A DNA stretch of 64,000 bases from Candidatus Micrarchaeota archaeon (GCA_016212525.1 JACRGD010000005.1:90304-154303); one strand, 5' to 3'. Shown: positions 9,993-42,147, counted from the first letter of the stretch. Notes: a model not told the origin generated them from the letters alone. Program-made: numbers and translations.

Positions 9993-10832
9993 CTATTCTG
10001 TCGAGTCTGTTCTGGTGCAATTGCCCTCAACGCTAACTAACAGTTGTGCCTGCATCAGCTGAGTTTCATATCCCTGCATCTGCACGCAGACTTGGTTTTG
10101 CAAGAACCTTCTGCACTGTCTTCGTGCATATTGGCTATCAAGTCCTGATAGGTAGAAATGCATGTCCCATCTATCGGTTGGATCATCTGTATTTCGAACT
10201 ATGAGTTCCAATTCCGGTCCGTGGTTGATCCGACCTTCGCCATATATGCACCAGCCCCGACAGTAATTTATGTCTCTGTTGTATTGACCAAGTTCGACTT
10301 GATAGCTGTTTGTTTGGTTTAAATCCCAAACTACTAATGGTTGTGTTGCAGTTGCAAAAGCTCCCGTAGTTCGAGTATCTGTGCAACTCGTCTCACAGAC
10401 TTGTTCTATCTGCATCGCTACGTGCATCGCGTCTACTCGGTATCGAAATAAAATTGTAAATGGAGTGCTATTTCCCATATCGATAAATGGAGCGTATTGT
10501 ACTCCTCCTCCTTCGCCTACTCCGTGCCAGCCCTGACCGTAATTTAATGAAAGATCCGTCGTTGTCGGTCCGATGCCGTGTATCTCTATATCATCATTTC
10601 CTCTGACTATTATGTTTATGAGATCTGATCTAAGGACTGATGCAGGATCGTTCTCGATCAGAATCCCTCTAACCGGTTCGGTTTGACAGCTTAATCTTGG
10701 AAAACGAGGATCCCGAAAGTGATCTAGTGGAATGGGAACTGGCTGGTTCTGCATTGGTTGATCTGGTAGTGGAGCGCATGAGATCGTGGCTGCAATTATG
10801 CCTGAGCCAAGTGTCAATCTGAGTTTTTTCAC
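9993..10832 (-). CDS. secreted lipoprotein (hypothetical), divergent from the membrane-protein cluster
   Basis: GTG start. Signal peptide with the lipobox-like ATISC. Cys-containing soluble domain with no recognised motif. Confidence 0.5.
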   Translation of the reverse strand: MKKLRLTLGSGIIAATISCAPLPDQPMQNQPVPIPLDHFRDPRFPRLSCQTEPVRGILIENDPASVLRSDLINIIVRGNDDIEIHGIGPTTTDLSLNYGQGWHGVGEGGGVQYAPFIDMGNSTPFTILFRYRVDAMHVAMQIEQVCETSCTDTRTTGAFATATQPLVVWDLNQTNSYQVELGQYNRDINYCRGWCIYGEGRINHGPELELIVRNTDDPTDRWDMHFYLSGLDSQYARRQCRRFLQNQVCVQMQGYETQLMQAQLLVSVEGNCTRTDSTE

Positions 10833-16174: not shown

Positions 16175-16178
16175 TTAT

Positions 16179-17303
16179 ATGGTTGTTGGCGGAATTTGTT
16201 CTAGTGCATCGTTGGGATTCCTTTCCTCCAGTCTCTACCCTCTTTTAGCTATTGCCGGAACCGTAACTGCAATAATTATTGCACTTGCTTATGCCATAGG
16301 AGAAGTTACTTCAAATCCCAAAATGTCTCTCTGGTCAAAAACCGAAATCTTCCAGCTTATTGCCTCTATGGTCTGCTGTGTTATTTTACTCCAGATTATA
16401 ACTGTCTTTTGTCTGCTTGATGTCCGTTCGATCTATTCTTTATTTACTAACACTGTCCCTGCTACTTCCCTTACAATCTATGATGCTGCTGATCACTATT
16501 TCATTGACGCGGGTACCTGGACCAGTGGCCTGCTTCGATCCGCCCGCTATCATCTAGGTTCATTTTTTGTCTTACAAAATTTCGGCCGGTCCACCTGCGA
16601 AGATATGCCTGCCGAGATTCGCTGGCTTTTCTGTATTTTTGGTACTGTTGCGACCAGTAGTGCCAGTGGTGGCATTAGTGTCAGTGTGAACACCATTCCC
16701 GATTCCGGATACGGTCTTCTCTCAAGTGGTCTTTTTGTTTCGTTCAACTCTATTCTATTCGCCCTTCTTTCGCTCCTTAATTACACTTTCATTCTTCGCT
16801 ATCTTTATGGAGGTTTCATACTTCTGTTCCTGCCTTTGGGCATGATGCTTAGGTCTATGCCGTTTATGAGGCAAATCGGTTCTCTGCTTATTGCCGTTGC
16901 AATTTCATTTGCAATAATCTACCCGCTTGTCCTCTCCGTCTTCTATATCGATTTCCTTCAACCTGCGCCTGTACGAATCCTGACACCCTGCTCATCCGCA
17001 TTCCTCTATTCAAATGAAGATTTGGATTCAAAGGTCGATTTGAGTGATGCATTTGATCTTGATGGCACTCTATATGATGATCTCTTTTCAACTTCAAACG
17101 ATCAGACAATCTGCGGTACAGCGTATGCCTCAGGTGAACATGGAGATCAGACTTTCGAAATTATAAAACTTACAGCCAATGCCTTCCTAATCGGAGTTTT
17201 CATTCCCTCATTATCTCTTTTGGCTTCTGCTGCTGCAGTCTCTTATGCAAACCGCTTCCTGGGACAGGAAATAGATTTAAGTAGAATAGTTCAGATGGTG
17301 TGA
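16179..17303 (+). CDS. polytopic membrane protein, paralog 5 of 6
   Basis: 374 aa. Motifs ALAYAIG...MSLWSKTEIFQL, LRSMPFMRQIGSLLIAVAISFAIIYPL and tail LGQEIDLSRIVQMV. Confidence 0.8.
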   Translation: MVVGGICSSASLGFLSSSLYPLLAIAGTVTAIIIALAYAIGEVTSNPKMSLWSKTEIFQLIASMVCCVILLQIITVFCLLDVRSIYSLFTNTVPATSLTIYDAADHYFIDAGTWTSGLLRSARYHLGSFFVLQNFGRSTCEDMPAEIRWLFCIFGTVATSSASGGISVSVNTIPDSGYGLLSSGLFVSFNSILFALLSLLNYTFILRYLYGGFILLFLPLGMMLRSMPFMRQIGSLLIAVAISFAIIYPLVLSVFYIDFLQPAPVRILTPCSSAFLYSNEDLDSKVDLSDAFDLDGTLYDDLFSTSNDQTICGTAYASGEHGDQTFEIIKLTANAFLIGVFIPSLSLLASAAAVSYANRFLGQEIDLSRIVQMV

Positions 17304-17306
17304 TTG

Positions 17307-18365
17307 ATGACTGACGCGACAATGATAACCGGATATTTGAGGGGCTTTGATGTAGGCGCCCTATCTACTATAGATCCGGCATTTCAATGGCTTCCTCTTT
17401 GTCTTGGTGCAGCAGTTCTTACAATTACTGTTTATGCCCTTATTTACGGTCTTTCAAAATCCTTCAATCTTTCAGAATTAGAACGCCATTCTAAATCCGA
17501 GCTTCTTAATGCCGGAGCGACTGCGCTGATTGTCATTTTCATCGTTTTTCTAGTTACTCAGATGGAAACATTTGTGATCGGTTCTGTTCTATGCAATGGT
17601 GCGACCTGTGCTACTTTGCCCTGTGGCGGAGTAAGTTATGAAATCCGTCAGCTCTCAACTGTTTTTGATGTTATTCAATGTCGAATGTCCGAGCGGGCAC
17701 ATTCGTTTGCAGATTTACAGGAACAGGTTACTTCTGCCGCTATTCTTCCAACTTCTCTGTTGAACCTTAATCTTGGTTTAGTTGGGACTCAGGTATTTTC
17801 CGGTTATATGGTCGGTTCCTGGTACAAGGAGGTCGAAACATATCGATTACTTAATCATGCACTCTCAACCTTTCTTATTTCAACTAATGCAATGATCGTT
17901 GTGGCACAATACATAAAGCAAAATTTACTCTCGTTTTTCCTGCCTATCGGGTTGCTTTTGCGTTCGCTCTATTTCACCCGCGGAATCGGTGCTTTCCTGA
18001 TTTCTTTTGCTCTTTGTTTCTATTTCATTTTCCCAATTGTCTATACTCTTACTGATTCGAACTATATTCCGCCTTCCTATTCAGCTCCGCCAACCCCGCC
18101 TGAAATTAAATCCCAGTTCTGCTATCCCACATTTACTGGCGTAGTCTATAGTATCTATTCTTCAACCTCATCCGCTTCACCCTCAGCCGGTTCAAACTCT
18201 ATTTCACTTGATGAACTTAGGTCTTCTCTTTCTTCAGTCTATATTTCTCTATTAGTCCAGCCATTCGCCTGCTTTGCCATAACTCTGGTTTTCGTTCGCT
18301 ATATGACCTACATATTTGGAGGAGAAGCCCAGGATGTGCTTCGAGGAGTCGCAAAAGTAGTTTAG
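17307..18365 (+). CDS. polytopic membrane protein, paralog 6 of 6
   Basis: About 352 aa. I prefer the ATG at 17307 to the TTG at 17304. Motifs YALIYG...LSELERHSKSELLN, LRSLYFTRGIGAFLISFALCFYFIFPI and tail FGGEAQDVLRGVAKVV. Confidence 0.8.
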   Translation: MTDATMITGYLRGFDVGALSTIDPAFQWLPLCLGAAVLTITVYALIYGLSKSFNLSELERHSKSELLNAGATALIVIFIVFLVTQMETFVIGSVLCNGATCATLPCGGVSYEIRQLSTVFDVIQCRMSERAHSFADLQEQVTSAAILPTSLLNLNLGLVGTQVFSGYMVGSWYKEVETYRLLNHALSTFLISTNAMIVVAQYIKQNLLSFFLPIGLLLRSLYFTRGIGAFLISFALCFYFIFPIVYTLTDSNYIPPSYSAPPTPPEIKSQFCYPTFTGVVYSIYSSTSSASPSAGSNSISLDELRSSLSSVYISLLVQPFACFAITLVFVRYMTYIFGGEAQDVLRGVAKVV

Positions 18366-18374
18366 GTGCTCGAT

Positions 18375-21300
18375 ATGAAAAACCGAAATCTGATCCTGAT
18401 TTTATTCCTTTTACTCGTATTCTCCGGTTGTACTCTTAGAAAGCCTGTTAGCTATGGCTGCTGTGTTGTTGATGAATCAGCAGCTACTCCTTCGTGCACT
18501 AGACTTCGTGATTCTTCACCTAGTTTGGTTTCTTTAGTTTCGACAAATCTTTGTCAAATGGACAATGGCCTATGCAACGTTACTCTTAGGCTTACCTTCT
18601 CAGACGATCCCTCTGCTGCAAGAACCGAAACTGCGATCATTCCAATCTGCACAAATACGACTTCAAAATGCGTTTCTGGCGACTGTACTGCGATGGTCTG
18701 CGGTCCATTTAAGTATGATCCAAGTCCGACTCCAAGTTTTTCAGATACTTCCCGTGCTACTTCCTCCAGTGCCTCTTTAGCTTCAGATTCCTCTTATTCG
18801 CTTGGTCTTTACAACAAAACCTGCAGATTAGTTGATGCCGGATCAACATTGGACAACTTCTTTACTAATACAAAAGGCAGTTTTGTCAATACGTTTAGAT
18901 TCGGTTTTGGATCTTCCTTTTCCGAGTTCGACGCTTATCGATATCTGTTTCCAACAAGCGACTTTTTCTGCAGTGTAAATCCCGATGATAATGCAAAAGA
19001 TCGATATATGAACTATATGATGTCTCCTCTGGATTTCCAGGATTATATGCGAAGCGCTCTTGCGATCAAGCCACAGGACCGTGCATCAGCTGGAAACTTC
19101 TGTCCAGTAAACAGCGTCTCGCCTTTCTTCTCGACGACCTATTTCAATTCCCCATTTCCAAACTATATGCGAAATTTTGTAAGTCGCCAGAGGTATATTT
19201 ACAATACTACGATTACTACGCTTCCGCCTTCTGGAGGTTCAGGGTCTTCTAGCTTTGAACAAAACTATTCCTTTACCAAAATCGAGTCGTATAACTTTAC
19301 ACAGCTCGATAAAAAATTCTATGGAGGAACATTGCCGCTTATCTATTCTACTGCTTTAGAGGGCTTTGATTCTATCAATCGCGCGGCTCCATTTGAGTGC
19401 GAATCTCCAACCCAGTGTATGTCTGGTTTATGCAACTATGAGGACTATCGAAGATCGATCTGTAAAATTGGCTCTACCTGGGTCGAGTGCGGTTGCGATA
19501 AAAATGCCCGAAAATGCGTTTCCCAAACTTCTATTTATAATCGAACTATTGCAGGAGCAATTCCAAACACTGCCGCTGCTCTCCAAACCTATGTCGATGC
19601 ATATCAGGATCGTGGCGCTCTTTACAAAACTCAGGTGATTTACAACGCAACTGTTCATTACGCACGAATTGATCCTGATTGTAGCAGTGGTGTCGTAAGA
19701 AAAATCGATCCTCAGAATTGTGGGGATCGTGGTGAGACCTGTTTTGATATGGGTTCTTCACAAGTGCCCGATTCGCCAATTTTTCCCTCAAGTGTCCAAT
19801 TCTTTGGTGAGGTCCGGGAGGGTTATATTGGATATAGCTTTTTGAGCAGGGATGACTTTGAAAAGACTGATCTTGTACGTAATTGTCATCTGGAACCGGG
19901 TAGAGATTATATTGTATCTGGTTCGAGTGGCCCTCCGGCTGTTGATCCCACTGAACTGACTTCAGAAGAAGTCACTGCTGTTACTGCTACTGGTGCGATT
20001 TTTAGACCGCCTTCTCCAATTCCAGAGCGAATTGGTTATCAACTCGGGCGTAGGCCTCATTGCGCTACTCTCGATGAGGGTCCAGATGATCTTGGTCTTT
20101 ATACTTACGTAAGTGAAGCGATTTTAGTTCGATCTGCTGGTGATTGTGAATTGGATGGCAATACGCACATGCCAATAACAAAGACGTTTGGCTGGTGTGA
20201 AGGTTGTACTTTCTCCAATATTGCAAAACAGGTTCTCCTTAGCAACGATACCAAGCCCTATGTCCCGCTTGTCGATATTAAGTCTCCTCGGGAAGGTGCG
20301 GCATTGAATTTAACTGCGCCTGTTTGTAATTTCGCTAAAAATCCAGTTGCAATTTCAGATCTTCTTAGTTATCCCTATAATACTACGATAACCGGTGGTG
20401 GCAGTTCGCCATTTGATCCATATCTAAGTCCGGTTATTCCCTCTGATATTACCTGTCCTGGCTATGAAACTACAATCAACACACGTCAAAGTAACTTCAC
20501 TTTAACTTCAGTCGATTCTGTTTACTTAGGTCAAAAGGAAGCAGAATTCTTTAGAGAAGGAACTCTCCCTGTTCTTGATTTATCAGATTCTTCCAATTGG
20601 GATTCTCAAAATAATCTTACCATTACTCAGAGTCTGATCGATCGGGGACCGGCAGTCATTATAGTTTCCAAGATCGCTACCTATCCCTCTTCCGGATACT
20701 TAGATACCTTGGGAGATCGGCTTTCGAATATTCGCGCAGTCTGTAAGAACTGTCTTACTTCAGTTGAACTTTCCTTGCCATTTACTTCTGAGAGCACTGC
20801 AAGTGGCAGATATTTTGGTGATTTCTTTATTCTCGATGCTCTTAACCGCTCTGCAGTTTTCGATAATATTGATGTAATTTCCTATGATTACTATCCAACT
20901 GAACTGATTAGAGATCATACTACTTTCTGCACTGGTTCTTCATTGATTCGAAACCAGTTATTAGTCGATTCAATTGCCAACTTTTCCAGTACAATGCTTC
21001 GAAGATATGCTCCTAAGTATAAGCTGAGTTTAATTCCTACGTTTTACTTTAGTTCCAGCTGTCTTAATGATGGGAATGTTTCTCTGGTCTTTAACTATCT
21101 TTTGAAGAATCAGAAGACTCTAAGTCGCAGTGGCTTAATTGGAATAATCTATACTGGTGATGCATCTACTTATTATGATTCTGGAGGGCATTCCACCGAT
21201 GCATTCTGTTCTATCGATAAAGGTGCAAAGAATATGCTTTCTTCCGAACCGCTTACTGTGTATTCCAAGCTACAGACTACTCCTGCCGGAAATCTAACCT

Positions 21301-21827
21301 GCCAGGTTTGTAGTGATGCAGATCTGGCTCTGGGACGTTGTAATCCGATTTGTGATAATGGGGTTAGATGTACTAATCCTGATAGTGGTTTTCTTACGGA
21401 TGAAGCATTTCGCCTCCATCTATCTAGGGGTTCGGATGTCCCTCTTAAATGCCCCTCCAATTCCATCCCAGAACCCTGCACGCCCTGCTCAGCCAGGACT
21501 GAAAGAATGTCCTGTGATTTCTTTTTGGCCGATGGTAGTTCCTATTCTCAGACCTACAACCTTAGAGATCTTTCAGCAGCTACACCTGATATTATTTCCA
21601 GTATTCCATCTCCCTACAAATGTTGTGTTAGTGATCCAGGACGCCCAACAAACTATACTTTCAACAAGCAGACTACTGTAGATCACACTGTTGCTCCTAT
21701 TATTTTCTCAAGAGCAGGTGATCCAAGGCAGGACTGCGGAGTTTCTGATCTTTCTCTCTTAACTCCTCAGATGTGCGGTGCTGATGCTCCATTTAAGAAT
21801 TATCGATTGAGATGCAGGATCATTTAA
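18375..21827 (+). CDS. giant secreted cysteine-rich lipoprotein, probably N-glycosylated (unknown function)
   Basis: About 1150 aa. The ATG at 18375 is preceded by GGTG. Signal peptide ends in the lipobox-like VFSGC. I count roughly four dozen Cys by hand and many N-x-S/T sequons. No C-terminal TM segment and no recognised domain. Confidence 0.8.
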   Translation: MKNRNLILILFLLLVFSGCTLRKPVSYGCCVVDESAATPSCTRLRDSSPSLVSLVSTNLCQMDNGLCNVTLRLTFSDDPSAARTETAIIPICTNTTSKCVSGDCTAMVCGPFKYDPSPTPSFSDTSRATSSSASLASDSSYSLGLYNKTCRLVDAGSTLDNFFTNTKGSFVNTFRFGFGSSFSEFDAYRYLFPTSDFFCSVNPDDNAKDRYMNYMMSPLDFQDYMRSALAIKPQDRASAGNFCPVNSVSPFFSTTYFNSPFPNYMRNFVSRQRYIYNTTITTLPPSGGSGSSSFEQNYSFTKIESYNFTQLDKKFYGGTLPLIYSTALEGFDSINRAAPFECESPTQCMSGLCNYEDYRRSICKIGSTWVECGCDKNARKCVSQTSIYNRTIAGAIPNTAAALQTYVDAYQDRGALYKTQVIYNATVHYARIDPDCSSGVVRKIDPQNCGDRGETCFDMGSSQVPDSPIFPSSVQFFGEVREGYIGYSFLSRDDFEKTDLVRNCHLEPGRDYIVSGSSGPPAVDPTELTSEEVTAVTATGAIFRPPSPIPERIGYQLGRRPHCATLDEGPDDLGLYTYVSEAILVRSAGDCELDGNTHMPITKTFGWCEGCTFSNIAKQVLLSNDTKPYVPLVDIKSPREGAALNLTAPVCNFAKNPVAISDLLSYPYNTTITGGGSSPFDPYLSPVIPSDITCPGYETTINTRQSNFTLTSVDSVYLGQKEAEFFREGTLPVLDLSDSSNWDSQNNLTITQSLIDRGPAVIIVSKIATYPSSGYLDTLGDRLSNIRAVCKNCLTSVELSLPFTSESTASGRYFGDFFILDALNRSAVFDNIDVISYDYYPTELIRDHTTFCTGSSLIRNQLLVDSIANFSSTMLRRYAPKYKLSLIPTFYFSSSCLNDGNVSLVFNYLLKNQKTLSRSGLIGIIYTGDASTYYDSGGHSTDAFCSIDKGAKNMLSSEPLTVYSKLQTTPAGNLTCQVCSDADLALGRCNPICDNGVRCTNPDSGFLTDEAFRLHLSRGSDVPLKCPSNSIPEPCTPCSARTERMSCDFFLADGSSYSQTYNLRDLSAATPDIISSIPSPYKCCVSDPGRPTNYTFNKQTTVDHTVAPIIFSRAGDPRQDCGVSDLSLLTPQMCGADAPFKNYRLRCRII

Positions 21828-21932: not shown

Positions 21933-22322
21933 ATGCAATTTTTGAAAGATGTGAATTTGAAGGAAGTTTGTATATCTATTCTTATCTCAATAGTTTTATT
22001 CCTACTTCTTAAACCATTTTACGTATACAATGTATCTCTTGTTTGTGGAGGTTCAAAAGAAGTATTTCTATACTCTACCGGTTCAGATCTTTTTAGGATT
22101 CGAGGTTGTCTTTATACTTCCATCAATCAGCCATTTCAAAACTTAGTCTGGGATCTTCTAATTTATACTTTGCCTTGGATTCTGGCTTTCTGCTACTATT
22201 ACTACAAAACACCAAATGTTAAATTTGATTTCAAAATTTTGCCTTTTGGTTTAATCCTGTGTGGTTATCTGCTTTTTCAAGTGCTCTATATATTATATAT
22301 TTATCCAGGTAATCTCCTATGA
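21933..22322 (+). CDS. small integral membrane protein (hypothetical)
   Basis: 129 aa with three or four hydrophobic helices. Its stop overlaps the subtilase start (ATGA). Confidence 0.5.
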   Translation: MQFLKDVNLKEVCISILISIVLFLLLKPFYVYNVSLVCGGSKEVFLYSTGSDLFRIRGCLYTSINQPFQNLVWDLLIYTLPWILAFCYYYYKTPNVKFDFKILPFGLILCGYLLFQVLYILYIYPGNLL

Positions 22323-24925
22323 GACTTGCAACTGGGGCTATCTCTAACCATCATCGATCTATTGAATTGAAAAAAGAAAAAAGACTAGCTCTTTTTTCTA
22401 CAATTGCGCTTGCAGGTTTAGCCTCCTGTGTTGTTGATTCTCCACCTGACCAAAATCGATTTGGATTCTTAAATGAAATTCATTTAACAAGTCCGACTAG
22501 ATTTGTTCCATTTAGGAGGTCTGGTTTTAGTTCCGATCTTTTAGTTGGAGAGAATCAATTTTTGCTCTATTATGAGCCAGACATAAGTCCAGATCAAAAA
22601 AACAGAATTGAAGATTGGCTTTTAGGACAAAATGCACGCAAGGTTGGTCAGAACCCCTTTTCATCAATGACTCAATATGAAGTTTTTTCTTCAGTTCAGC
22701 TAAATTCGATCTTAGATTACCTTAATGCGCAGCCCGGAGTCGTTACTGCTATCCCTAATCTGGTCCTTAGACCAACTCTAAATCCCGATCCTGATTTGTC
22801 AACCTCTTTCGATTCGGGTAACTGGTGGTTAACTTCCCTTAATCTTAGAGATGCCTGGTCTATAACTACTGGCTCTAGAGCGATTCCAATTGCAATAGTT
22901 GATTCAGGAATAGATTCTGGAGTTGGTGGTTTTGGAAGTAAGCCTATCACTCATTTTGTAAGATGTACTAGACCTATAGGTGGTAGAACAGAGGTTTATT
23001 TTTCTCTTTTGGCAGGTTCTAATCCGTACCATTGTTCTCAATATATTTCTGGTGTTCATGGAACGCAAGTTGCATCGATTGCAGCGGCACCTGGAGATGA
23101 CCATTTGGGCGGTGCTGGTGTTGCGTGGCAAAATCCATTGATCTCAATTGATGCTTATGGTTACTCTGGCGTCGGATCAGTAACTCTTGCTGAGACTGAT
23201 GCTGCAATCCAAACTGCAATTAGGGCAGGAGCACGTGTGATAAATGTCTCACTTGGATATGGGGGTTGTATTGCTCCTCTTTTTTGTATTTCTAACAATC
23301 AAGAGGCTCGTCATATTTTCCGGTCTGGTTTTATCAATTCCGCTCGTGTCGCTAATCGAAACAATGCCTTAGTTGTCTTTGCCGCAGGCAATGACGGTTT
23401 TTCAGGTGATGATAGTTGGCTATCGCCAGCTGATAGACAATACGAAAGATATTTCATAACTAATGTTCTTTTTGTGGGGTCGGTTGACTATCTCAATGAT
23501 CCGACCTGTAATGCTTGTAATTTTTCATCTGCTCTCCAAACTATTTGCAGGGATAATGGAACTTCTGACTTAAGCAGGTTGAATCGATGCAATTGCTTTT
23601 GGTGTAGTAGTTCAACTTTAAGTGGTCGATTAACTGCCAGCGGCAGAGTAGTAGAATTGTATACTCCTGGCTGTCACATTGCGGTTCCTATGAGTAGCAC
23701 CTTGGTCCAAGGTAGTTCGATATCTTCCCCAATGGTCTCCGGAGCAGCCGCTCTAGTCTGGTCAGTAAATCCAAACCTTACAGCCCCGCAAGTAAAACAG
23801 ATTTTGTTGGATACGGCTCGTTCTGCATCTAGTCTAGGTGGTTGTATGGACGTAGGTAGAGGTATCCCCGATGTTGCAGCCGCAGTCCGGGCAGCAAGAG
23901 CAACTTTGCAGGATGCTTCTGTTCCGACTGATGCTTCAGTTGATGCAACTTCCGATGTATCAAGAACAACGACATTCTATTCTCAAGCACGTTTACTCAG
24001 AAACAATGATGTCCTTCTTCGTGGAAATGAGGTTTTACCTGGTACTCATTATTCTGCCCTTCTAACGAGACTTAGTTCAAGTGGTCGACCTCTTTGGACA
24101 TTTCAACCCTCTAGATCTGAATCGCAAATTGGTGCTTTATATGAAGATGAGCGGGGTCTTTGGATCTCTGGGAGATGGCAATCTGGTGGATCAACTTCTA
24201 GAGCTGCACTTGCCCAACTAGATAGTTCAGGAGCTCTAGTTTCAGAGCGTTTACTTCCAGACTCAGATCTAATAAGAAGTCTTTTTGTAAACCCAGACGG
24301 CTCTCTGGTTGGTGATACTGGTTATCAATTATTTGAATATGATAGTTCTGGTCGCCCAGTCTGGGTAACTCGTGCCCGTCCTGCTACTCCTTTTGATGTT
24401 GTAAGAACTTCTGCTGGTTATGCCTTTTTCCGTTATAATGGATTATATGGTGTAAACCGTACTGGTAATATTGTTCTGGATTCTGGGTATGTTATAGGTC
24501 ACGATAATTCCTTTGCATATTCTCCAAATGCTGGTTCTGGTTGGTATATTCTAAGTGATTCTCCGTTCTCTGATCAATCCTTATCTCATCTAGATTACGA
24601 AGGACACTCAAGATTCTTAGGCCAATTATCCATTCCCAATTTACGTGCTTTTGATTCTCCAAATTCCTTGGCAATGACTAGGGCAAGTCGGTCCTTTGTT
24701 CTTTTTGCCCGTTACCATACTACTGATGGTGCCGGTCAAACAAAACTTTTTGGAGTTTCTGATTCTGCCACGATTCTTTGGTCAAGATCTCTTGATTTTA
24801 GGGCTCGAAATGTTGATGGTTTAATGACTACTTCTGACGGTCGCATCCTTCTTGTCTCAACTGACAATACAAATCCCTCGCAAGTTAGGCTTGATTATTT
24901 TGATGAATCTGGCAACCCTCTCTAG
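22319..24925 (+). CDS. S8 subtilisin-like serine protease with a C-terminal repeat (beta-propeller-like) region
   Basis: Catalytic contexts AIVDSGID (Asp), HGTQVASIAAA (His) and GSSISSPMVSGAAALV (Ser). Lipobox-like LASC near the N-terminus. The C-terminal ~330 aa carry repeated SGRP(L/V)W-type strands. Confidence 0.85.
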   Translation: MRLATGAISNHHRSIELKKEKRLALFSTIALAGLASCVVDSPPDQNRFGFLNEIHLTSPTRFVPFRRSGFSSDLLVGENQFLLYYEPDISPDQKNRIEDWLLGQNARKVGQNPFSSMTQYEVFSSVQLNSILDYLNAQPGVVTAIPNLVLRPTLNPDPDLSTSFDSGNWWLTSLNLRDAWSITTGSRAIPIAIVDSGIDSGVGGFGSKPITHFVRCTRPIGGRTEVYFSLLAGSNPYHCSQYISGVHGTQVASIAAAPGDDHLGGAGVAWQNPLISIDAYGYSGVGSVTLAETDAAIQTAIRAGARVINVSLGYGGCIAPLFCISNNQEARHIFRSGFINSARVANRNNALVVFAAGNDGFSGDDSWLSPADRQYERYFITNVLFVGSVDYLNDPTCNACNFSSALQTICRDNGTSDLSRLNRCNCFWCSSSTLSGRLTASGRVVELYTPGCHIAVPMSSTLVQGSSISSPMVSGAAALVWSVNPNLTAPQVKQILLDTARSASSLGGCMDVGRGIPDVAAAVRAARATLQDASVPTDASVDATSDVSRTTTFYSQARLLRNNDVLLRGNEVLPGTHYSALLTRLSSSGRPLWTFQPSRSESQIGALYEDERGLWISGRWQSGGSTSRAALAQLDSSGALVSERLLPDSDLIRSLFVNPDGSLVGDTGYQLFEYDSSGRPVWVTRARPATPFDVVRTSAGYAFFRYNGLYGVNRTGNIVLDSGYVIGHDNSFAYSPNAGSGWYILSDSPFSDQSLSHLDYEGHSRFLGQLSIPNLRAFDSPNSLAMTRASRSFVLFARYHTTDGAGQTKLFGVSDSATILWSRSLDFRARNVDGLMTTSDGRILLVSTDNTNPSQVRLDYFDESGNPL

Positions 24926-25160
24926 CTCCAATTTCCATTTAGTTGTTATTTTTTAATACTCAAATTCTATGACGTTATTTTTTCTATTTCTCTTAGTTCT
25001 AAAGATTCTCTCCCGTTATATTTTTCTATTCATATTTTATCTATTTACCACTCTTGGTGTGTTATTTTACACCAAAATCTCAAAACAGTGTGCCTTCCTA
25101 GGTCCTTTTATACCTTTTGATGTACTGGTATTATGTGATTATGTTAAAAAGGTGAAATAC

Positions 25161-26102
25161 ATGAGCGTTCCAAGGATGAAAACAATCGGGAGTAGAGTTG
25201 GATCGTTGGTAGTAGTAGCCGCTTTGACTGCGCGTTGCGGTACGGCTGCACCTCCGAATATGGGAGAACCCATGACAGATGTTCCTACTATTAAGAATGA
25301 TGCTGGCGTTGTAAATCCTCGGGATGGGCCCGTTGTCCCTCCACGTGATGTTGTAATTCCTAGTGATTCTGGTAGTTCAAGATGTACTGTTGCTCCGAAC
25401 TCCGTTCCAGCAGCTAATCAAAGACCAAGGGTAGATCATGTTCGTAATGGTGAAATAATCTCTATTGCAACTGCTTCTGGAAACAATCTGGTTAAGGTTG
25501 GAGTATATGACTATAATGATACTTTGGCACCTACCGGACAGGCAAGTGCACCTCGTTTACCTCCAAATCTAAGACATGTAGTAACTCTTAGTCCAGTTCG
25601 TGATCCTTCATCCTGCGCTCGTGGAACTCCCCCTTGCGAATGTACTGAGGAGCCCTTTAGTGGAAGATCTATGCGATTTTATGAGGGTAATTTTCCTTCC
25701 ATTCTTTTCCCTGAATTTCGAGCTGATGATGTCAAGGTTCAACTAGCTTTCGTTTCTTCAACCGGGGTTGCTGACTTGTTATTATTTCGACCTCCTTCTA
25801 TAGATCGATATACTCAAGTCGGTGCTGTTCATATTCCTACAACTGAAGGCACCACTGTCTCCATGGCAACCATAACCTTCACTTCACAAGGCACTCCTGA
25901 TTTCAGGTTTCTTGGTGATCCAGCACGTGCCTTGCTTGCTGAAGGTTCTATATCAGGAACTGTTGTTCCTATGACTATTTTGGAATCCAGAGATCCCGTT
26001 TCTAGTTACTGTATGCTCGGATCGACTCTCTACCGATTCCAGAGTCGTCTTCCTACTGGTGGCTCTGATGCATCAGTAAATGTGAGTTCAGTAACCTTCT
26101 AA
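25161..26102 (+). CDS. secreted lipoprotein (hypothetical)
   Basis: I prefer the ATG at 25161, which is preceded by GGTGA. Signal MSVPRMKTIGSRVGSLVVVAALTARCG. The upstream part of track ORF 24969-26102 is a low-complexity hydrophobic run and is rejected. Confidence 0.55.
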   Translation: MSVPRMKTIGSRVGSLVVVAALTARCGTAAPPNMGEPMTDVPTIKNDAGVVNPRDGPVVPPRDVVIPSDSGSSRCTVAPNSVPAANQRPRVDHVRNGEIISIATASGNNLVKVGVYDYNDTLAPTGQASAPRLPPNLRHVVTLSPVRDPSSCARGTPPCECTEEPFSGRSMRFYEGNFPSILFPEFRADDVKVQLAFVSSTGVADLLLFRPPSIDRYTQVGAVHIPTTEGTTVSMATITFTSQGTPDFRFLGDPARALLAEGSISGTVVPMTILESRDPVSSYCMLGSTLYRFQSRLPTGGSDASVNVSSVTF

Positions 26103-26131
26103 TCTTTTAATTTTTCTTTCCTTCTTTTCAT

Positions 26132-27103
26132 ATGCTAAAATTTCTTTTTATTGTTGTTTTTTCTATTGGATTAGTTAGTTCTGTTTCTTATATCTCTAAT
26201 TGTACGGTGATAACTAAACCCGGAACTTATCTTCTTGATCGTGACATCCTGGTTTCACCAGCAGAACTTGGTAAATGTATTTTGATTGATTCGGATAATG
26301 TTGTTCTGGATTGCCAGAATCATACTTTGAAAAATGACCCGGCCGCTCCTTTGATGTCTGGTATTCAAGCTTTTTATCAGAACAATCTTACTGTTCAAAA
26401 TTGTATTTTGGATGGTTTTGGATCTGGTATTTCAATCCACAAAATTAATAATTCCATCTTTCATGATAATCTGTTCACTCATAATTCTGATGGTTTTATT
26501 ATGAGTTTTTCTCGAAATGTCATGTTATATTCCAACCAATTCTTTAGAAATGAAAACGGTCTTACTGTCAGTTCTCTCATAAATCTATCTTTTTATGATA
26601 ATGCGGCGATCAACAACTCCCATTATGGTTTTGATATTATTGCCAATTTATCAGATATTAACTCAAACTCTGCTTCTGAAAATCAGGTTGGTTTCAGTGT
26701 TTCCCTTTATGATGGTAATTTTACTAATAATTCAGCAACTCGAAATAAGGATGGTTCTGGTATTTCCGGTTCCAATGTTAATGTGAACAAAAATTTTTTC
26801 TCAAACAATTCTGAAGATGGTCTCTCCCTAAGTTTGGAAAACTCAAATATCTCAGGTAATTTCATTTGCGGCAATGGTTTCTCGGATAGCTATCACTATT
26901 ACGATCTCTATGGAAATTATCCTCAGTACAATAACTCCCTCCAAAACAACACTTGCCAGACTTCAAATCCTCCGGGGAATTGCAATTCCCCGTGTTCTCT
27001 TTCTTCCTCCCTGCAGATTTCATCAAAACCAGGTTCTTGTTTTGGGCTTGCTATTCTCTTTACTGTGATTTCTTTATCTCTACTTTGGAAGGGCTTCCAA
27101 TGA
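26132..27103 (+). CDS. right-handed parallel beta-helix (PbH1/NosD-like) repeat surface protein with a C-terminal TM anchor
   Basis: Signal peptide, then about 9 degenerate ~22-aa repeats rich in N/G/S (NxxxxNxxxGI/F...) that are typical of PbH1 coils. C-terminal hydrophobic anchor CFGLAILFTVISLSLLW. Confidence 0.65.
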   Translation: MLKFLFIVVFSIGLVSSVSYISNCTVITKPGTYLLDRDILVSPAELGKCILIDSDNVVLDCQNHTLKNDPAAPLMSGIQAFYQNNLTVQNCILDGFGSGISIHKINNSIFHDNLFTHNSDGFIMSFSRNVMLYSNQFFRNENGLTVSSLINLSFYDNAAINNSHYGFDIIANLSDINSNSASENQVGFSVSLYDGNFTNNSATRNKDGSGISGSNVNVNKNFFSNNSEDGLSLSLENSNISGNFICGNGFSDSYHYYDLYGNYPQYNNSLQNNTCQTSNPPGNCNSPCSLSSSLQISSKPGSCFGLAILFTVISLSLLWKGFQ

Positions 27104-27729
27104 AGGGCTATTTCACCTGGTTTCTGGTTCTTGTTTGCGTGCTAGTTATCCTTTCTGGTTATGCTCTCTATGCCAAAAGCATGCAAAATGTTCAATCAAA
27201 GCAAATTTTTCTTTTACGTTCCGAGCATTTGGCCCAAAATGTTGTTGAAGCTAGCGGAGAGCTAATGAGACAAGAAATTAAGCGAAATTTTACTGCATAC
27301 GATGAATCTCGGTTTCTTGTAAACTGTCTTGCGTGTCCTAGTCATTATTGTCTTCCCTACGTTCCTGCTTATGCCCCTGACGAATTAAAGGCAAAAAGGT
27401 GTGATGAAAGGAAGTGCGATCTCTGTTTCGAACCTTCCGTCGCCTCCTCCGAAGCAGAAAAAGCAGGAATTCAAAACTTCCACCAGACAGACAATTACGA
27501 CTGGGATTCAGATTACAATATCTCAATAGAAGAACCCAAAATCAAAGTCTTTCTAAAAATAGATCCATTAGCTAAAAACGGGTATTCTCTAGACTATTAT
27601 GAAGTTACACAAGATTCTCTAATTCGCATGAGTTCAGAAAAATTCCATTTTGAAGCAAATTACACTCTTCCAAAAGGTTTCGCATTAACCTACGAGCAAG
27701 ATGCTCCGATTATCTTCAAGATCCGATAG
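27100..27729 (+). CDS. N-terminally anchored Cys-containing protein (hypothetical)
   Basis: ATG at 27100 overlaps the previous stop (ATGA). One TM segment (FTWFLVLVCVLVILSGYALY). Cys cluster CLACPSHYC...CDERKCDLC. Confidence 0.55.
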   Translation: MKGYFTWFLVLVCVLVILSGYALYAKSMQNVQSKQIFLLRSEHLAQNVVEASGELMRQEIKRNFTAYDESRFLVNCLACPSHYCLPYVPAYAPDELKAKRCDERKCDLCFEPSVASSEAEKAGIQNFHQTDNYDWDSDYNISIEEPKIKVFLKIDPLAKNGYSLDYYEVTQDSLIRMSSEKFHFEANYTLPKGFALTYEQDAPIIFKIR

Positions 27730-27758
27730 CTTTAATTCATTCTCCGAGTTGATTCTTT

Positions 27759-28184
27759 ATGGATGGTTTTAGGTTTTCTGTGCTTCTGACAATTTTCTTT
27801 AGTGCGGCTAGCCTCCTTTTCTTGATCGTCTACGTTTTGCTTCCTCCTATTTTCTCTGTTATCATAGGCGAATCTAATGTCCCTTCTTGCGAACCTCTAA
27901 CTCCACCTCCTCCTTGTCGATCGGGTGGAGTTTGCCTTTATGAGCCTCCCCTTCAACCTATCTGTCCCAGTGCCCGAGGTCTTCTGGGAATTGTGGGTTT
28001 GTTTTTTATGGTTCTAGCGTTCCTCTCCAACCTCATCGCCAATATCATCGCAACCAAGAAAATCCTTGCATCCAAATCTTTCGTTCGATTTGATAAGCGA
28101 ATCTGGATCGCTCTAATCTGGCTTATTGGAACAATTGGTGTTTCTCTGTACTACTTTAAGGAATATAAAAATAACAAATCTTAA
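27759..28184 (+). CDS. small membrane protein with a Pro/Cys-rich loop (hypothetical)
   Basis: 141 aa with three TM segments. Loop sequence SCEPLTPPPPCRSGGVCLYEPPLQPICPS. Confidence 0.5.
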   Translation: MDGFRFSVLLTIFFSAASLLFLIVYVLLPPIFSVIIGESNVPSCEPLTPPPPCRSGGVCLYEPPLQPICPSARGLLGIVGLFFMVLAFLSNLIANIIATKKILASKSFVRFDKRIWIALIWLIGTIGVSLYYFKEYKNNKS

Positions 28185-28203
28185 TTCAGCTCTAACGAGC
28201 GTC

Positions 28204-28211: not shown

Positions 28212-28234
28212 CTCCGCGTGCGTAGTTTTTACTG

Positions 28235-31200
28235 ATGAAACGGGTATTCCTCCTAACCCTCCTGTCTCTGTTAGTATTGTCATTCTCAATTGGTCCTGGT
28301 TCTACCGAGCCAGTGCCCACTACTGACAGTATCGACATCAGTGGAATTCTTGGTTCTGGAACTGTAACCGAACTCGTCGCTTCGGGTCTAATTAGTCCGG
28401 AGTGCAGCCTTTGCGAAGATCTTTCAGCATATTCTCAATCTTTTCTCAATATTATAAATGACGATACAACCTCACATCTTCAAATCGCCCTTACTAATTC
28501 TTCACGAGCCCCTGTACAGCGCGCTCCGATAATTCTTCGAATAAATGGTAGCGGTTCTGACACCTATCGCGTTGTCTACACCAACAACCGGGGAATTGCA
28601 TCTTTCGATTACGGTCCATACAATACGAGCTGTCAGAAATTCACAGCATTCTACTGCTATGGCTACAATTCCTGCTCTTTCCTTAAGTGTCTCCATGCCC
28701 TGGGTTTTGAAGAAGGCAGCGAGCCATACTCTGATTTTAGTTCAGTGCCATTATCTCCAAGAACCATTCGTCCAACTCTTCGCCAGAGCCCTGCTCTTGT
28801 CAAATCGTCTTCGGCTACTTTCAACTACTGTCCAACTCCGACTACTACCGTTTCAACAACTCCGGCATTCTGCCTTCCTTTAGTTCTAATCGCAGTCCTG
28901 CTTCTTGGCGCTCTATATGTCTCAGGTCGAAATCCCTTTATGGCGTTCGATCTTTCCAATCCTCATGTAGGCAAACACATCCGCTATACTGCACGACAAA
29001 GAAACATTTATCATATGGATACTGTCGGTGCCGCAACTGCCATTACTAAAGTAGTCGGTGCTGTTGCAAATCCAACCCAGACCCGCTCTACTGAGAGTCA
29101 ACAACTCAGATCTGGTTCGGGAATGGTGGGTTTAGCAGGCGGTCTTACTGGTGGAATCCGTGGTGCGGTGCAGGGAGCTAGAGGTCTTGGTACTGCTGTC
29201 CGATCTGCTGGCGCTAATGCCCGAAACCCTACTGCTACTGGTCCTAGGCCAAGTACTGCCCGGACAATTGGCAATGCTTTTACACAATCCCTGGGTGGTT
29301 CTTCTCTTGGTCGTATGATTGGCGGAATTGTAGCTGCCGGCCGAGGTGGCGATCCATCTACTACTCTCTTAAGTCGAATTGGTAACATTGCACTAGCAGT
29401 TCTTACGAACAGTAGCTTCGGATATCTTGTTTCTGAACTTGGCGCTACGGTTCGATCACTCCGACTCGATGCAAATCTTGAGCGGGCATTACAAAATTAC
29501 ACCAACTTCCAGCATCATGTCGATCGAAGAGAAACTACTACTGTTGATGGTGAACAGGTTACCGTTACTATGCGCTACACGCTCACCGCAAGAAACGGCA
29601 GAATGGAAATGACTGTTGCCCAGGTTCGTGAAAATGGCGATGTTATTCCAAATTCCAGCCGGCCTGTTTTGCAATCTGCTCTTCCTGAAGAAGTTTCAAG
29701 ATCTTTCGGGACTCAAATTCACGACCGTGCACTAACTTACTATCGGACTTCTGCAGTTGAAAACGGTCGCTCGGCAAATGACGAGACGATTCGTCTTGGT
29801 CAATTGGCATCCGCTGCTGCTTCAGGTCGAAGTCTTTCTGACTTAGCTCCGGATAGTCCACTTCGCGCAGCTCTCGCAGCAAATGGTCTGGTCTTTGGCA
29901 CATCTGATGAGCGATTACAACTGGGTCGCGCTGTTGCTGCAGCACTTACTGATCCTTCTGTTCAAAGTAGTCCTGCGTTCTGGGAAGCACTTTCCTCTGC
30001 AGTAGGTGAGCGCAATGCCCGTGAAATGTTCGTATCTGCAAACCGGATAGTTGCTTACAATGCCGAAGCAGCATATTCCGAGCGTCGGGCGGCTTTATTG
30101 GAAACAATGCCTGGTAATGTTATCATGTCCAATCAAATGTTCATGGCATATCAGTCGCTCATGGCCCATGCCAATGGATCAGCTGCACAGAACCTCGCTG
30201 CGACTGCTTTGGCTAATGTTGCAAGTTCTACTTCAGAATCCTTTTCCTTTAATGCCGGAGGCGAACAAGGTGGTTCATTAATTGGCCGGTTCAGAACTGC
30301 AGCTGATCTAGCTGCTGCTTCTTCAGAGCAGGATCTTGCAATTTTAGGTATCGCCCGGGCCACTGCACTTAATCCCCAATTAAACATTCCAAATGTGGGT
30401 AATATGCTCGAGCGATTTAGTGCAGATCCTATTGCTAATGATGCTGCCGGTCTCCTTGGTGCAAATGCTGAACAATTTAATCGAGCTACTGTAGCTGATG
30501 GTACTAGAGTTTATTCAGAATCCGCAGCTGAAGTTCGGGATTACTGGCGTGGTATCGGTCAACTTACTGGTGTTTATGCCGCTTCCGAGGGCGATTCCAT
30601 GGCAGCCGCCCGACTTAATCTCCCAACGATTGCACAAATTACTACTAATTTCACTTCTGACGATAGTCATGTTGATGCCACTCGTTATGTCCGTGCGCTT
30701 GTGCATGCTCAGATGAATGGAGATAGTGTTCAGTTAGATCGCATTTTGGCTTCTTTGGATCGCTATGGTCATGCATCCGATCCAGAATCCCGGGCTGCCG
30801 AATCAGTTCGATTAAGTACACTCGAATCGGTTTCAACTGCCCAAGCAAACGTTCGTGCACAGGGCCTTGAAGTCATAGATCGTCAGAGAACATTCGAGTT
30901 TGCAAGGCGCGATCTTCAACAGCAGATCGATGCTTTGCCTTCGGACGATCCAAGGCGTTCAATATTAGAGCAGCGAATCGAATCTCTTGCAGCTGCATAT
31001 GTTCAATATACTGAGGCCTCATCTGCCCGCAGTGCAGCACCTGGTGTTGAAACTTCCCAGGTGGGAGTTACTACCGATCGACTGTTCCTTCAGGCAGATG
31101 CAAACTTCCGCACTCTTGTTGCGACTTCCCTTGGCGGTCGAATCGATGGCTATATAGAGACTAATCTATCTGCTCCTGCAAGAACCCAATTCGTTGAGGA

Positions 31201-31996
31201 TCGTACTGCAATTGCAAATACTGACGCGGCCGTTTCCGGATCAAGAATCCCTGATATAATTCGTACTATTCCAAATTATGAAAATTTGGATCGCTCACAA
31301 TTGGCTTCTGCTGTTACTCAAAGAAGTGCGTTTCCTTATGAGCAGGCAAGAGTTGCTGCAATTTCTGACGTTTCCGAATCCGATCTTCATGATTTTGTCG
31401 GATCGTTAAGGCAGCGGGAACTGGATGCTTTGCATCGTCGTCATGAGTCTTCTGTTTCTGATCTTCGTGCCGGTAGCTATGCTCAGGAAGAGAGGGCAAT
31501 AAATGAACGTTATGATCGGGTTGAGCAAGCCTATGAACATATGAATACTGCCCGTTCCGAATCTGTTACCGAATCAAGGCGCATAGATCGCGAAGAGTTC
31601 AGTGATGGTACTTCAGAATCTCCGCGTGCTGGTACTACCTCCTATAGAAGTTCTGCTTCTTACGCGGGCCGAAGAGCGGCTTCAGATACTAATCGGAATA
31701 CTGCCGAATCTGACTTCCGTGAATCTGTACGAGACACGTTTGGTGGTGCTTCTGCCGGTTCAGGTTCAATGCAGACCCACATTGATCGATTCCTTGATAA
31801 TCATGCCTCTAATCAATCTGCCGCTACACTTAGGGGTGCACGTGAACGACTTCTTGCTGTTCCCGGGTCTTCTAATACGGATGTATTGAGCGATCATCTT
31901 CCTACCTATATGCCTACTGGTGCACCAACTGACTTTAGTGGTCGGTCCACTCAATTCGTCTTTGATCCGGTTACTCGAACCATGGTTGCAAGATAA
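28235..31996 (+). CDS. 1253-aa bipartite membrane protein: a Cys-containing ectodomain, one TM segment, then a ~980-aa Lys-free, Cys-free Ala/Ser/Arg-rich region
   Basis: Signal peptide, then a ~190-aa N-terminal domain with 9 Cys. TM segment AFCLPLVLIAVLLLGALYV. After residue 272 I find no K and no C by reading the translation. A Gly-rich stretch (GLAGGLTGGIRGAVQGARGLG) follows the TM segment. The many spurious antisense ORFs indicate locally raised GC. Confidence 0.8.
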   Translation: MKRVFLLTLLSLLVLSFSIGPGSTEPVPTTDSIDISGILGSGTVTELVASGLISPECSLCEDLSAYSQSFLNIINDDTTSHLQIALTNSSRAPVQRAPIILRINGSGSDTYRVVYTNNRGIASFDYGPYNTSCQKFTAFYCYGYNSCSFLKCLHALGFEEGSEPYSDFSSVPLSPRTIRPTLRQSPALVKSSSATFNYCPTPTTTVSTTPAFCLPLVLIAVLLLGALYVSGRNPFMAFDLSNPHVGKHIRYTARQRNIYHMDTVGAATAITKVVGAVANPTQTRSTESQQLRSGSGMVGLAGGLTGGIRGAVQGARGLGTAVRSAGANARNPTATGPRPSTARTIGNAFTQSLGGSSLGRMIGGIVAAGRGGDPSTTLLSRIGNIALAVLTNSSFGYLVSELGATVRSLRLDANLERALQNYTNFQHHVDRRETTTVDGEQVTVTMRYTLTARNGRMEMTVAQVRENGDVIPNSSRPVLQSALPEEVSRSFGTQIHDRALTYYRTSAVENGRSANDETIRLGQLASAAASGRSLSDLAPDSPLRAALAANGLVFGTSDERLQLGRAVAAALTDPSVQSSPAFWEALSSAVGERNAREMFVSANRIVAYNAEAAYSERRAALLETMPGNVIMSNQMFMAYQSLMAHANGSAAQNLAATALANVASSTSESFSFNAGGEQGGSLIGRFRTAADLAAASSEQDLAILGIARATALNPQLNIPNVGNMLERFSADPIANDAAGLLGANAEQFNRATVADGTRVYSESAAEVRDYWRGIGQLTGVYAASEGDSMAAARLNLPTIAQITTNFTSDDSHVDATRYVRALVHAQMNGDSVQLDRILASLDRYGHASDPESRAAESVRLSTLESVSTAQANVRAQGLEVIDRQRTFEFARRDLQQQIDALPSDDPRRSILEQRIESLAAAYVQYTEASSARSAAPGVETSQVGVTTDRLFLQADANFRTLVATSLGGRIDGYIETNLSAPARTQFVEDRTAIANTDAAVSGSRIPDIIRTIPNYENLDRSQLASAVTQRSAFPYEQARVAAISDVSESDLHDFVGSLRQRELDALHRRHESSVSDLRAGSYAQEERAINERYDRVEQAYEHMNTARSESVTESRRIDREEFSDGTSESPRAGTTSYRSSASYAGRRAASDTNRNTAESDFRESVRDTFGGASAGSGSMQTHIDRFLDNHASNQSAATLRGARERLLAVPGSSNTDVLSDHLPTYMPTGAPTDFSGRSTQFVFDPVTRTMVAR

Positions 31997-42143: not shown

Positions 42144-42147
42144 TTTC

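Follow-up and report, generated by a model that had tools for sequence, protein, structure and literature searches.

Long Lys-free regions of proteins are usually explained by a high guanine-plus-cytosine (GC) content of the genome, and are otherwise read as ubiquitin or Pup shields in eukaryotes and Actinobacteria. A continuous Lys-less region is termed a lysine desert if it spans at least 150 amino acids or makes up at least 50% of the sequence (Szulc et al. 2023, iScience, PMC10665810; Cell Mol Life Sci 2023, PMC10169902). The deserts described are evolutionarily conserved and tied to the ubiquitin and Pup systems of eukaryotes and of high-GC Actinobacteria (PMC10665810, PMC10169902). The iScience paper makes no mention of archaea (PMC10665810), and, of the papers that we searched, none describes lysine deserts or proteins avoiding Lys in DPANN, the archaea to which the Candidatus Micrarchaeota lineage belongs. 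Here we analyze a stretch of 64,000 nucleotides from a Candidatus Micrarchaeota archaeon (GCA_016212525.1 JACRGD010000005.1:90304-154303; hereafter the window), which encodes a membrane protein of 1253 residues, our target, whose last 981 residues contain neither Lys nor Cys. A preliminary description of the window had singled out this region, hereafter the tail, and had proposed acquisition from a high-GC donor, selection against Lys, or a low-complexity scaffold as its explanation.

Depletion of particular amino acids is known from other systems. The A chains of AB toxins (ricin, cholera toxin and Shiga toxins) are, like certain other translocated proteins, depleted of Lys, the rationale being escape from Lys-directed tagging, and sulfur-starved cyanobacteria possess phycobiliproteins free of Met and Cys, while biosynthetic enzymes show a bias concerning their cognate amino acid. 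The target is like the toxin chains in its strong Lys-to-Arg bias and in having a producer that lives on another cell, a likeness of composition only; it differs in being membrane-anchored and about 1000 residues long, in having no domain, toxin-like or enzymatic, that could be found by PDB sequence search or in Pfam or NCBIfam, and in giving no indication of translocation into a host. By analogy, it may also be likened to the phycobiliproteins, in that one amino acid has been nearly removed from particular proteins and is used freely in the remaining proteome. The alkaline adaptation of M-protease involved fewer Lys and Asp/Glu residues and more Arg and His/Asn/Gln (Shirai 1997, via the Horikoshi review PMC8153356).

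Compared with the described lysine deserts, the tail is well above the defining length (981 amino acids, 78% of the protein) and shares with them the compensation of Lys by Arg, the enrichment of Ala and Gly, and a flexible predicted structure of low confidence. It differs in two respects. It occurs in an adenine-plus-thymine (AT)-rich DPANN archaeon and is missing from all 15 other members of its protein family that were examined, and is thus not a conserved desert; and, while described deserts have a link to ubiquitin or Pup, a link to any tagging system would here be hypothetical. The parts of the target are as follows.

28235..31996, plus strand: complete open reading frame (ORF) of the target, 1253 amino acids, identical to hypothetical protein HY990_00890 (MBI5222956.1) of Candidatus Micrarchaeota archaeon
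28235..28306, plus strand: residues 1–24, signal peptide-like hydrophobic N-terminus (Kyte–Doolittle hydropathy, KD19, 2.08; AlphaFold2 (AF2) helix at residues 2–16)
28307..28864, plus strand: residues 25–210, ectodomain, predicted Ig/FN3-like beta-sandwich (7 Cys, 3 Lys, 8 Arg)
28865..28921, plus strand: residues 211–229, transmembrane helix 1 (TM1), AFCLPLVLIAVLLLGALYV; family motif TPAFCLPL invariant
28925..28987, plus strand: residues 231–251, juxtamembrane motif GRNPF..F......GKHIRY, conserved in the family alignments
28988..29377, plus strand: residues 252–381, strongly basic Gly/Ala-rich loop (1 Lys to 13 Arg)
29378..29446, plus strand: residues 382–404, weak second hydrophobic segment (KD 1.21, predicted insertion energy (dG) about +5.7) at a family-conserved position
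29051..31993, plus strand: residues 273–1253, Lys-free and Cys-free stretch of 981 amino acids (net charge −14)

We counted the residues directly on the translation. The only Lys residues of the target are those at positions 2, 135, 151, 190, 247 and 272, six in all against 108 Arg, and Cys occurs at positions 57, 60, 133, 141, 147, 152, 199 and 213. The reported lack of both residues over some 980 positions after residue 272 was thereby confirmed for residues 273–1253; the nine Cys reported near the N-terminus, by contrast, are eight, one of which (C213) lies inside the transmembrane (TM) helix. The tail is dominated by Ala (14.3%), Ser (10.8%), Arg (9.7%), Leu (7.8%) and Gly (7.6%). The neighbouring housekeeping proteins are Lys-rich, as had been noted: the presumed cytoplasmic proteins of the window contain 6–16% Lys (pooled, 8.9%). 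At this pooled frequency, the probability of finding no Lys in 981 residues is 2e-40; it is 3e-21 at the lowest Lys frequency of any ortholog tail (4.7%) and 2.5e-9 at that of the window's exported proteins (2.0%). Against the most Lys-poor proteins of the window it rises to between 1e-4 and 3e-3, the latter value applying to their mature parts (9 Lys in 1542 residues).

The depletion is a property of the reading frame. The tail contains 66 AAA or AAG triplets in its other two frames and none in frame, where some 19 AAR codons would be expected from its position-specific base frequencies, and 209 of the 981 codons lie one substitution away from a Lys codon. Because AAA and AAG are common out of frame and absent in frame, the constraint must act on the encoded residue and not on the DNA; a DNA-level constraint is ruled out. 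We also ruled out resistance of the mRNA to ribosome-dependent toxins that cut at Lys codons, as six in-frame AAR codons are present within the first 272 codons. The depletion extends beyond the tail and lies on both sides of TM1, with 3 Lys to 8 Arg in the ectodomain and 1 Lys to 13 Arg in the basic loop, the Lys fraction of Lys plus Arg in the loop departing from that of family loops (0.71) with P = 1.3e-6.

We then compared the target with its relatives. A word-based profile search built on the alignment of the N-terminal part had no hits; motif-based locus scans, used in its place, and sequence searches yielded 15 further distinct members of the family, every one of them from Micrarchaeota. 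In phmmer comparisons with 13 members, the target gave E values of 1e-23 to 1e-31, the ectodomain (residues 25–210) being its sole part with detectable homologs. The TPAFCLPL and GRNPF..GKHIRY columns are invariant in both family alignments, and the column of K247 is Lys or Arg throughout. The common plan consists of a signal peptide, a Cys-bearing ectodomain of about 180 amino acids, a TM helix, the GRNPF..GKHIRY motif, a basic loop of 100–180 amino acids, a hydrophobic segment that is weaker than TM1 and lies at a conserved distance from it (169 residues after TM1 in the target), and a net-acidic tail of 560–900 amino acids with 0–0.3% Cys. The target has the same N-terminal architecture, basic loop and second hydrophobic segment, followed by a long, net-acidic and Cys-free tail; Lys plus Arg number 17 against 4 Asp plus Glu in its loop, and 84 against 107 in the remainder.

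The relatives depart from the target in Lys. Their tails contain 4.7–13.4% Lys and 2.0–5.1% Arg, ranges that span slightly different tail windows, and none of them has a Lys-free run of more than 106 amino acids, whatever the genome GC (0.34–0.58). Orthologs from Micrarchaeota genomes of 51–58% GC have 7–13.5% Lys in the tail, which shows that GC is not the cause. Compositionally closest to the target are the relatives L006, L007 and L011 (genome GC 0.37–0.41), whose tails contain 4.9–7.0% Lys and 4.2–4.9% Arg, have about 14% Ala, are rich in Gly, Ala, Arg and Pro, and combine a very low GC content at third codon positions (GC3) with a tail GC above that of the genome. Since Lys and Arg together make up 9.1–11.5% of these tails and 9.7% of that of the target, the latter looks like a tail of this type in which Lys has been exchanged for Arg about one to one, Arg being roughly doubled. 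Asp plus Glu (11.1%) is at the low end of the family range (10.9–17.5%).

The tails of the family align only inside four subgroups, within which lineages share 24–30% identity over most of the length. No similarity between subgroups, or to the tail of the target, was detected by phmmer, by BLAST against all family tails or by profile-profile comparison of the subgroups with hhalign. Tails are thus fast-evolving across the family, and the target is an outlier in composition and not in divergence. When the tail was searched exhaustively with HMMER against 1.84 billion representative proteins, the only matches were the target itself and P0007, a bacterial surface protein of 30 repeats; the score of P0007 adds up from weak matches to its repeats, and we took it as spurious. 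The proposal of a low-complexity scaffold found no support in the form given: self-BLAST found no internal repeats and the entropy in 40-residue windows is normal (3.1–3.8 bits), although the tail does evolve fast and is predicted to be mostly helical with low confidence. AF2, run on the tail alone and with no alignment, predicted mostly helices and a small beta-meander at residues 424–466, with a predicted local distance difference test score (pLDDT) of 42, too low for a fold search. For residues 1–427 it predicted the Ig/FN3-like sandwich of the ectodomain at a pLDDT of 75–84; the Foldseek search with this model gave only a generic Ig/FN3-like match (E about 0.01).

Side by side with these comparisons, we observed that the TPAFCLPL motif, the hydrophobic helix and the GRNPF..GKHIRY motif (28859–28987, residues 209–251) form a strictly conserved unit, unlike everything flanking it, with a superficial resemblance to PGF-CTERM signals (motif, TM helix, basic cluster). 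A sorting signal of the archaeosortase type (PGF-CTERM and relatives) was rejected, as the motif is internal, with about 1000 amino acids following, and matches no curated sorting-signal model.

Next, the base composition was examined. The target region has a GC content of 0.47–0.50 against about 0.42 for the window, so the preliminary description was correct in seeing GC-richer DNA here, but the rise is only modest. Long antisense ORFs, which it had found only in this span, are not confined to it: antisense stretches that run for 80 or more codons without a stop are only about twice as dense as under the upstream genes. Within the tail, GC is 0.61 at first, 0.53 at second and 0.31 at third codon positions, GC3 in the window's genes being 0.25–0.46; the raised GC sits in the first two positions and therefore derives from the amino-acid composition. 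Synonymous usage equals that of the adjacent genes in its preference for T-ending codons and its mix of CGN and AGR codons for Arg, and the codon-usage distance of the tail to its neighbours (0.19) is smaller than that between gene classes (adjacent genes versus the cytoplasmic set). AGR codons, which are one transition away from Lys codons, account for 24% of Arg codons in the tail versus 37–40% elsewhere (p = 0.01–0.02), a modest deficit. As the Arg codons have equilibrated to the native mix, the Lys-free state is old and maintained, not recent.

These data bear on the proposed acquisition from a high-GC donor, and on a chimeric assembly as the source of the tail. The raised local GC, a Gly/Ala/Arg/Pro-rich composition like that of high-GC proteomes and the lack of any homolog of the tail would fit such an origin. 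GC3 and synonymous usage are native, however; the gene is a positional ortholog with intact synteny on its flanks (see below); downstream of the TM helix, the target is built like the rest of its family (basic loop, hydrophobic segment, beta-meander, long helical acidic region); the low-GC relatives L006, L007 and L011 are equally Ala-rich, with a tail GC above genome GC, and yet contain Lys; and high-GC Micrarchaeota orthologs are still rich in Lys. We consider a foreign or chimeric origin extremely improbable. Thus, the tail is a native, vertically inherited part of a Micrarchaeota-specific, single-copy membrane protein.

We also considered a neutral drift in composition, specific to this lineage, of a weakly constrained and fast-evolving region. 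It would be in keeping with tails that cannot be aligned between subgroups even by profile-profile methods, with low AF2 confidence and with normal Lys in the orthologs. The preliminary description had reasoned that normal Lys in orthologs would make the desert a drift artefact; the 15 members do carry normal Lys, but that inference fails because, under AT pressure and with 209 codons near to Lys, zero Lys could not have been kept by drift. A GC3 of 0.31 reflects AT-biased mutation, which creates Lys codons, while AAR is missing in frame only; the probability of a zero count at cytoplasmic, secreted or ortholog-tail frequencies is 1e-9 to 1e-40; and the equilibrated Arg codons speak for an old, maintained state. 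Drift is thus very unlikely. Selection against Lys, as the preliminary description had also proposed, is upheld at the general level: the constraint is confined to the reading frame, is held against AT-biased mutation and leaves the basic charge in place (Lys plus Arg, 9.7%). Taking these results together, we regard it as highly probable that a native gene has been under lineage-specific selection against Lys at the protein level. With the GC explanation excluded (AT-rich genome, GC3 of 0.31, Lys-rich proteome and 15 Lys-keeping orthologs), the case isolates selection against Lys.

The target is not alone in avoiding Lys. In four lipobox-type exported proteins of the window, only 9 of the 1542 residues of the mature parts are Lys, while Arg makes up 6–9%. 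These four, together with similar proteins of two relatives, are listed here.

9993..10832, minus strand: lipobox-type exported protein, no Lys after residue 3, Arg 7.2%
22319–24925, plus strand: S8 subtilase, Lys 0.9%, Arg 6.9%
24969–26102, plus strand: lipobox protein
57620..58261, minus strand: lipobox-type exported protein, 1 Lys in the mature part, Arg 9.4%
L018, 4338–5600, 8515–10923, 12481–15123 and 18788–19756: members of the same class
L022, 4776–7442: Lys-poor S8 homolog (GC 0.48), housekeeping neighbours Lys-rich

L018 (contig CAZPWA010000007.1 of GCA_964590665.1, GC 0.37) is a closer relative, in which orthologs of a conserved gene cluster described below are 46–57% identical to those of the window; its two S8 proteases and two lipobox proteins contain 0.6–1.2% Lys and 6–9% Arg, against 8–18% Lys in its cytoplasmic proteins. 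The class as a whole, with 0–1.2% Lys and 6–9% Arg, occurs in at least three Micrarchaeota lineages (GC 0.37–0.48), GCA_964590665.1 and GCA_053535575.1 among them, whose cytoplasmic Lys is 7–18%. Within this clade-level set, whose members are surface-associated, poor in Lys and rich in Arg and include the S8 protease encoded upstream of the target, the target is the extreme case. Other S8 homologs, P0009 and P0011, have normal Lys, and in the genome Sv217 the Lys-normal P0011 occurs together with a Lys-rich family tail (L009). Compared with these two, the Lys-poor S8 proteins (those of the window, P0010 and P0012) contain less Asp plus Glu (7.5–9.1% versus 11.4–15.0%), less Glu, more Arg and more His plus Asn plus Gln.

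The upstream S8 protease and its Lys-poor homologs thus show the full pattern described for the high-alkaline M-protease (PMC8153356), and a physico-chemical adaptation of exposed proteins could underlie the depletion, for example at a high external pH at which Arg keeps its charge or stabilizes better. This would place the tail in the extracellular space and require the second hydrophobic segment to span the membrane. Export signals are present in every other member of the Lys-avoiding class, and this segment is TM-competent in several family members (dG 1.2–2.8), but it is weak in the target itself; the presumed cytoplasmic loop is equally purged of Lys; and the tail lacks Cys, is not enriched in sequons and, when Lys and Arg are merged, is nearer to cytoplasmic proteins in composition. 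The target departs from M-protease in that its depletion is total and reaches into a loop that is presumably cytoplasmic, and an extracellular tail is only hypothetical. We judge an adaptation of this kind unlikely.

The topology on which this depends can be approached from several sides. TM1 has an uncharged N-terminal and a strongly basic C-terminal flank, so that, by the positive-inside rule, the loop at residues 252–381 should be cytoplasmic. The predicted insertion energy of the second segment ranges from +1.2 to about +9 kcal/mol across the family (+5.7 in the target); it may be either a second TM helix or a membrane-associated helix, and which of the two would decide on which side the downstream protein lies. 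The absence of Cys from the tail of the target, and its near absence from those of the family, favours the cytoplasm, as exported neighbours have 1.4–4.3% Cys. In the same direction point the merged composition, which scores nearer to the cytoplasmic than to the exported set, and the N-glycosylation sequons, which are enriched in the target ectodomain and about twofold in family ectodomains but not in tails (observed/expected about 1.1 in family tails and 0.83 in that of the target). Ortholog tails are, moreover, rich in Lys and Glu, as cytoplasmic proteins are. An external tail is favoured by the conserved position of the second segment and by the export of the other members of the Lys-avoiding class. 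On balance, we think it somewhat more probable that the tail of the target is cytoplasmic than that it is outside.

Depletion on both sides of the membrane, in ectodomain, loop and tail alike, and its sharing by the exported class would be accounted for if the organism depended on its host for Lys and could make Arg, so that Lys, scarce or not recyclable after export, has been purged from large or abundant proteins of surface and acquisition. Arg is indeed the replacement, argG, argH and an arginine-deiminase-type gene are present in the window at 40770–44407, and the mean biosynthetic cost of the tail is the lowest in the window (20.3 ~P per residue versus 22.4–24.8). The Lys-containing tails of the relatives are equally cheap, however (20.0–20.7); the cytoplasmic proteins of the same genome contain 6–16% Lys, and small proteins of the same putative operon a normal 5–6.6%; and cost per residue is a weak force for an exact zero in a fast-evolving region. 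We hold such saving of Lys to be rather unlikely. As to the genes concerned, 40770–44407 (minus strand) contains ORFs resembling argininosuccinate lyase and argininosuccinate synthase, next to a gene of the arginine deiminase/amidinotransferase family; Arg metabolism genes in an otherwise reduced genome may bear on the replacement of Lys by Arg.

We favour a reading in which a native tail is under selection against Lys at the protein level and serves as a shield against a Lys-directed hazard. Purifying selection on the protein would continuously remove the Lys residues that arise from AT-biased mutation. Since Arg is tolerated, the disfavoured property must be one that Lys has and Arg has not, the likeliest candidates being the reactivity of the epsilon-amino group or the recognition of Lys by an enzyme directed at it. 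The tail would then be a lysine desert that makes the protein refractory to Lys-specific proteolysis or to Lys-directed conjugation or acylation. That the Lys-avoiding class includes the upstream S8 protease suggests a hazard acting on the whole host-facing apparatus. In its broadest form, this would mean that a DPANN clade has evolved a Lys-avoiding, host-facing proteome and that a desert of about 1000 residues was selected against Lys-directed attack at or beyond the symbiont–host interface, the attacker being a SAMP/Urm1–proteasome tagging system or a Lys-specific protease, supplied by the host or, as the co-expressed S8 protease, by the symbiont itself. The desert would then have a parallel in the Lys-poor AB-toxin A chains; we consider this version speculative and doubtful.

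Several observations weigh against this reading. The target is not entirely free of Lys: its first 272 residues still contain six, of which K247 and K272 lie on the side of the membrane presumed to be cytoplasmic. None of the sampled orthologs, which all come from outside the sister lineages, has the Lys desert. Measured against the Lys-poor class of the window itself, a count of zero is only moderately extreme (P about 0.003), and an organism-level cause unrelated to attack therefore fits it equally well. No Lys-directed enzyme, tag or protease specificity was identified in the 64-kb window, and the P1 specificity of the S8 protease could not be inferred from solved subtilisins, from which the enzyme is too distant. 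Lastly, the evidence on the compartment of the tail is ambiguous, divided between the cytoplasm (no Cys, Glu present, sequons not enriched) and the outside (second segment, exported class). Taking these points into account, we put the probability of the reading as a whole at about 0.5, and the specific mechanism, a shield against Lys-directed attack, remains tentative.

Among genes that might be of interest in this connection, contigs of related Micrarchaeota encode a ThiS-fold protein of 64 amino acids beside a PP-loop ATPase, and a proteasome subunit (L023, 8108–9236; L025, 16864–17475). As judged from sequence, the ThiS-fold protein and the proteasome subunit are possible parts of a SAMP/Urm1-type system, and a tagging route is conceivable. 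In the window, a GNAT acetyltransferase (34430–34996, plus strand) and a membrane protein with a Lon proteolytic domain (35449–37413, plus strand) are encoded 2.5–5 kb downstream of the target.

The surroundings of the target identify it as a positional ortholog. The features on its upstream side, in addition to the S8 subtilase and the lipobox protein listed above, are as follows.

10964..21827, plus strand: conserved Micrarchaeota cluster of six paralogous exported proteins and one protein of 1153 amino acids, with orthologs in other loci
21933..28184, plus strand: block of co-directional, tightly spaced genes upstream of the target, not at this position in the other Micrarchaeota examined
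within 21933..28184, plus strand: a small membrane protein as the first gene of the block and two small membrane proteins as the last
26132–27103, plus strand: beta-helix protein

Cluster orthologs are present in the same gene order at 11 of the 12 loci searched, the exception being L010; L003 was too short. Outside the window, the cluster adjoins the family gene wherever the neighbourhood could be read (L001–L012, L014 and L016, excluding L010 and L003), the genes of the window and of the other loci being pairwise orthologs in conserved order, and at the P0002 place the genes have the same sizes as those of the cluster. On the other side of the target, ScpB/AAA_18 is encoded at 32582–33683 of the window, and PadR, AAA_18 and ScpB lie downstream of the family gene at both places where that side is readable (the P0002 place and L003). 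The conserved cluster and the ScpB/AAA_18 synteny together make the target a positional ortholog. Cluster orthologs are Lys-poor in all lineages, and in each ortholog group the copy of the window ranks lowest or second lowest in Lys. The paralogs of the cluster, about 320–690 amino acids long, share a conserved central region and are followed by a Cys-rich protein of 1150–1500 amino acids; the set is Micrarchaeota-specific and also found at L018. No Pfam or NCBIfam family was found in the cluster proteins, apart from a match to CedE far below threshold (E = 0.005, 17304–18365).

Judging from the spacing of the genes, the upstream block and the target probably form one transcription unit. The region has been rearranged locally (21933–33683), in that the target now follows the inserted block and converges on ScpB/AAA_18. 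Elsewhere (L001, L002, the P0002 place and L003), wherever that side can be seen, the family gene and the first cluster gene are divergently oriented; the PadR, AAA_18 and ScpB genes that follow the family gene at the P0002 place and at L003 are on its strand. Within the block, the ORF at 26953–27729 (plus strand) has a listed TTG start that overlaps the beta-helix gene by 150 nucleotides. Its L018 ortholog starts with MKGYF.., which corresponds to an ATG at about 27100 in the window and to a 4-nucleotide overlap with the upstream stop codon; such an overlap suggests translational coupling within an operon.

Downstream of the target, an intron-containing tRNA-Ser(UGA) lies on the minus strand at 32392–32526 (Rfam, 44 bits; anticodon loop CU-UGA-A, insertion of about 55 nucleotides, long variable arm), while ARAGORN reported no tRNA in the window. 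The ORF of 106 amino acids at 32214–32534 (plus strand) overlaps this tRNA gene and is probably spurious. A link between the Lys depletion and the adjacent tRNA was ruled out, as the tRNA is specific for Ser and thus for neither Lys nor Arg.

If the reading of Lys-directed attack is true, the target would be the first archaeal lysine desert, and Lys content would offer a cheap, sequence-only marker by which candidate host-interaction factors could be flagged in DPANN genomes. If instead the saving of Lys or an adaptation to pH is true, the target would be a clear natural case of compartment- or condition-specific eradication of an amino acid. The organism is an archaeal episymbiont, the surface and host-contact proteins of which are almost entirely uncharacterized. 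Either way, the family, the neighbouring cluster and the Lys-poor S8 proteases provide concrete targets for the few existing co-cultures of Micrarchaeota.

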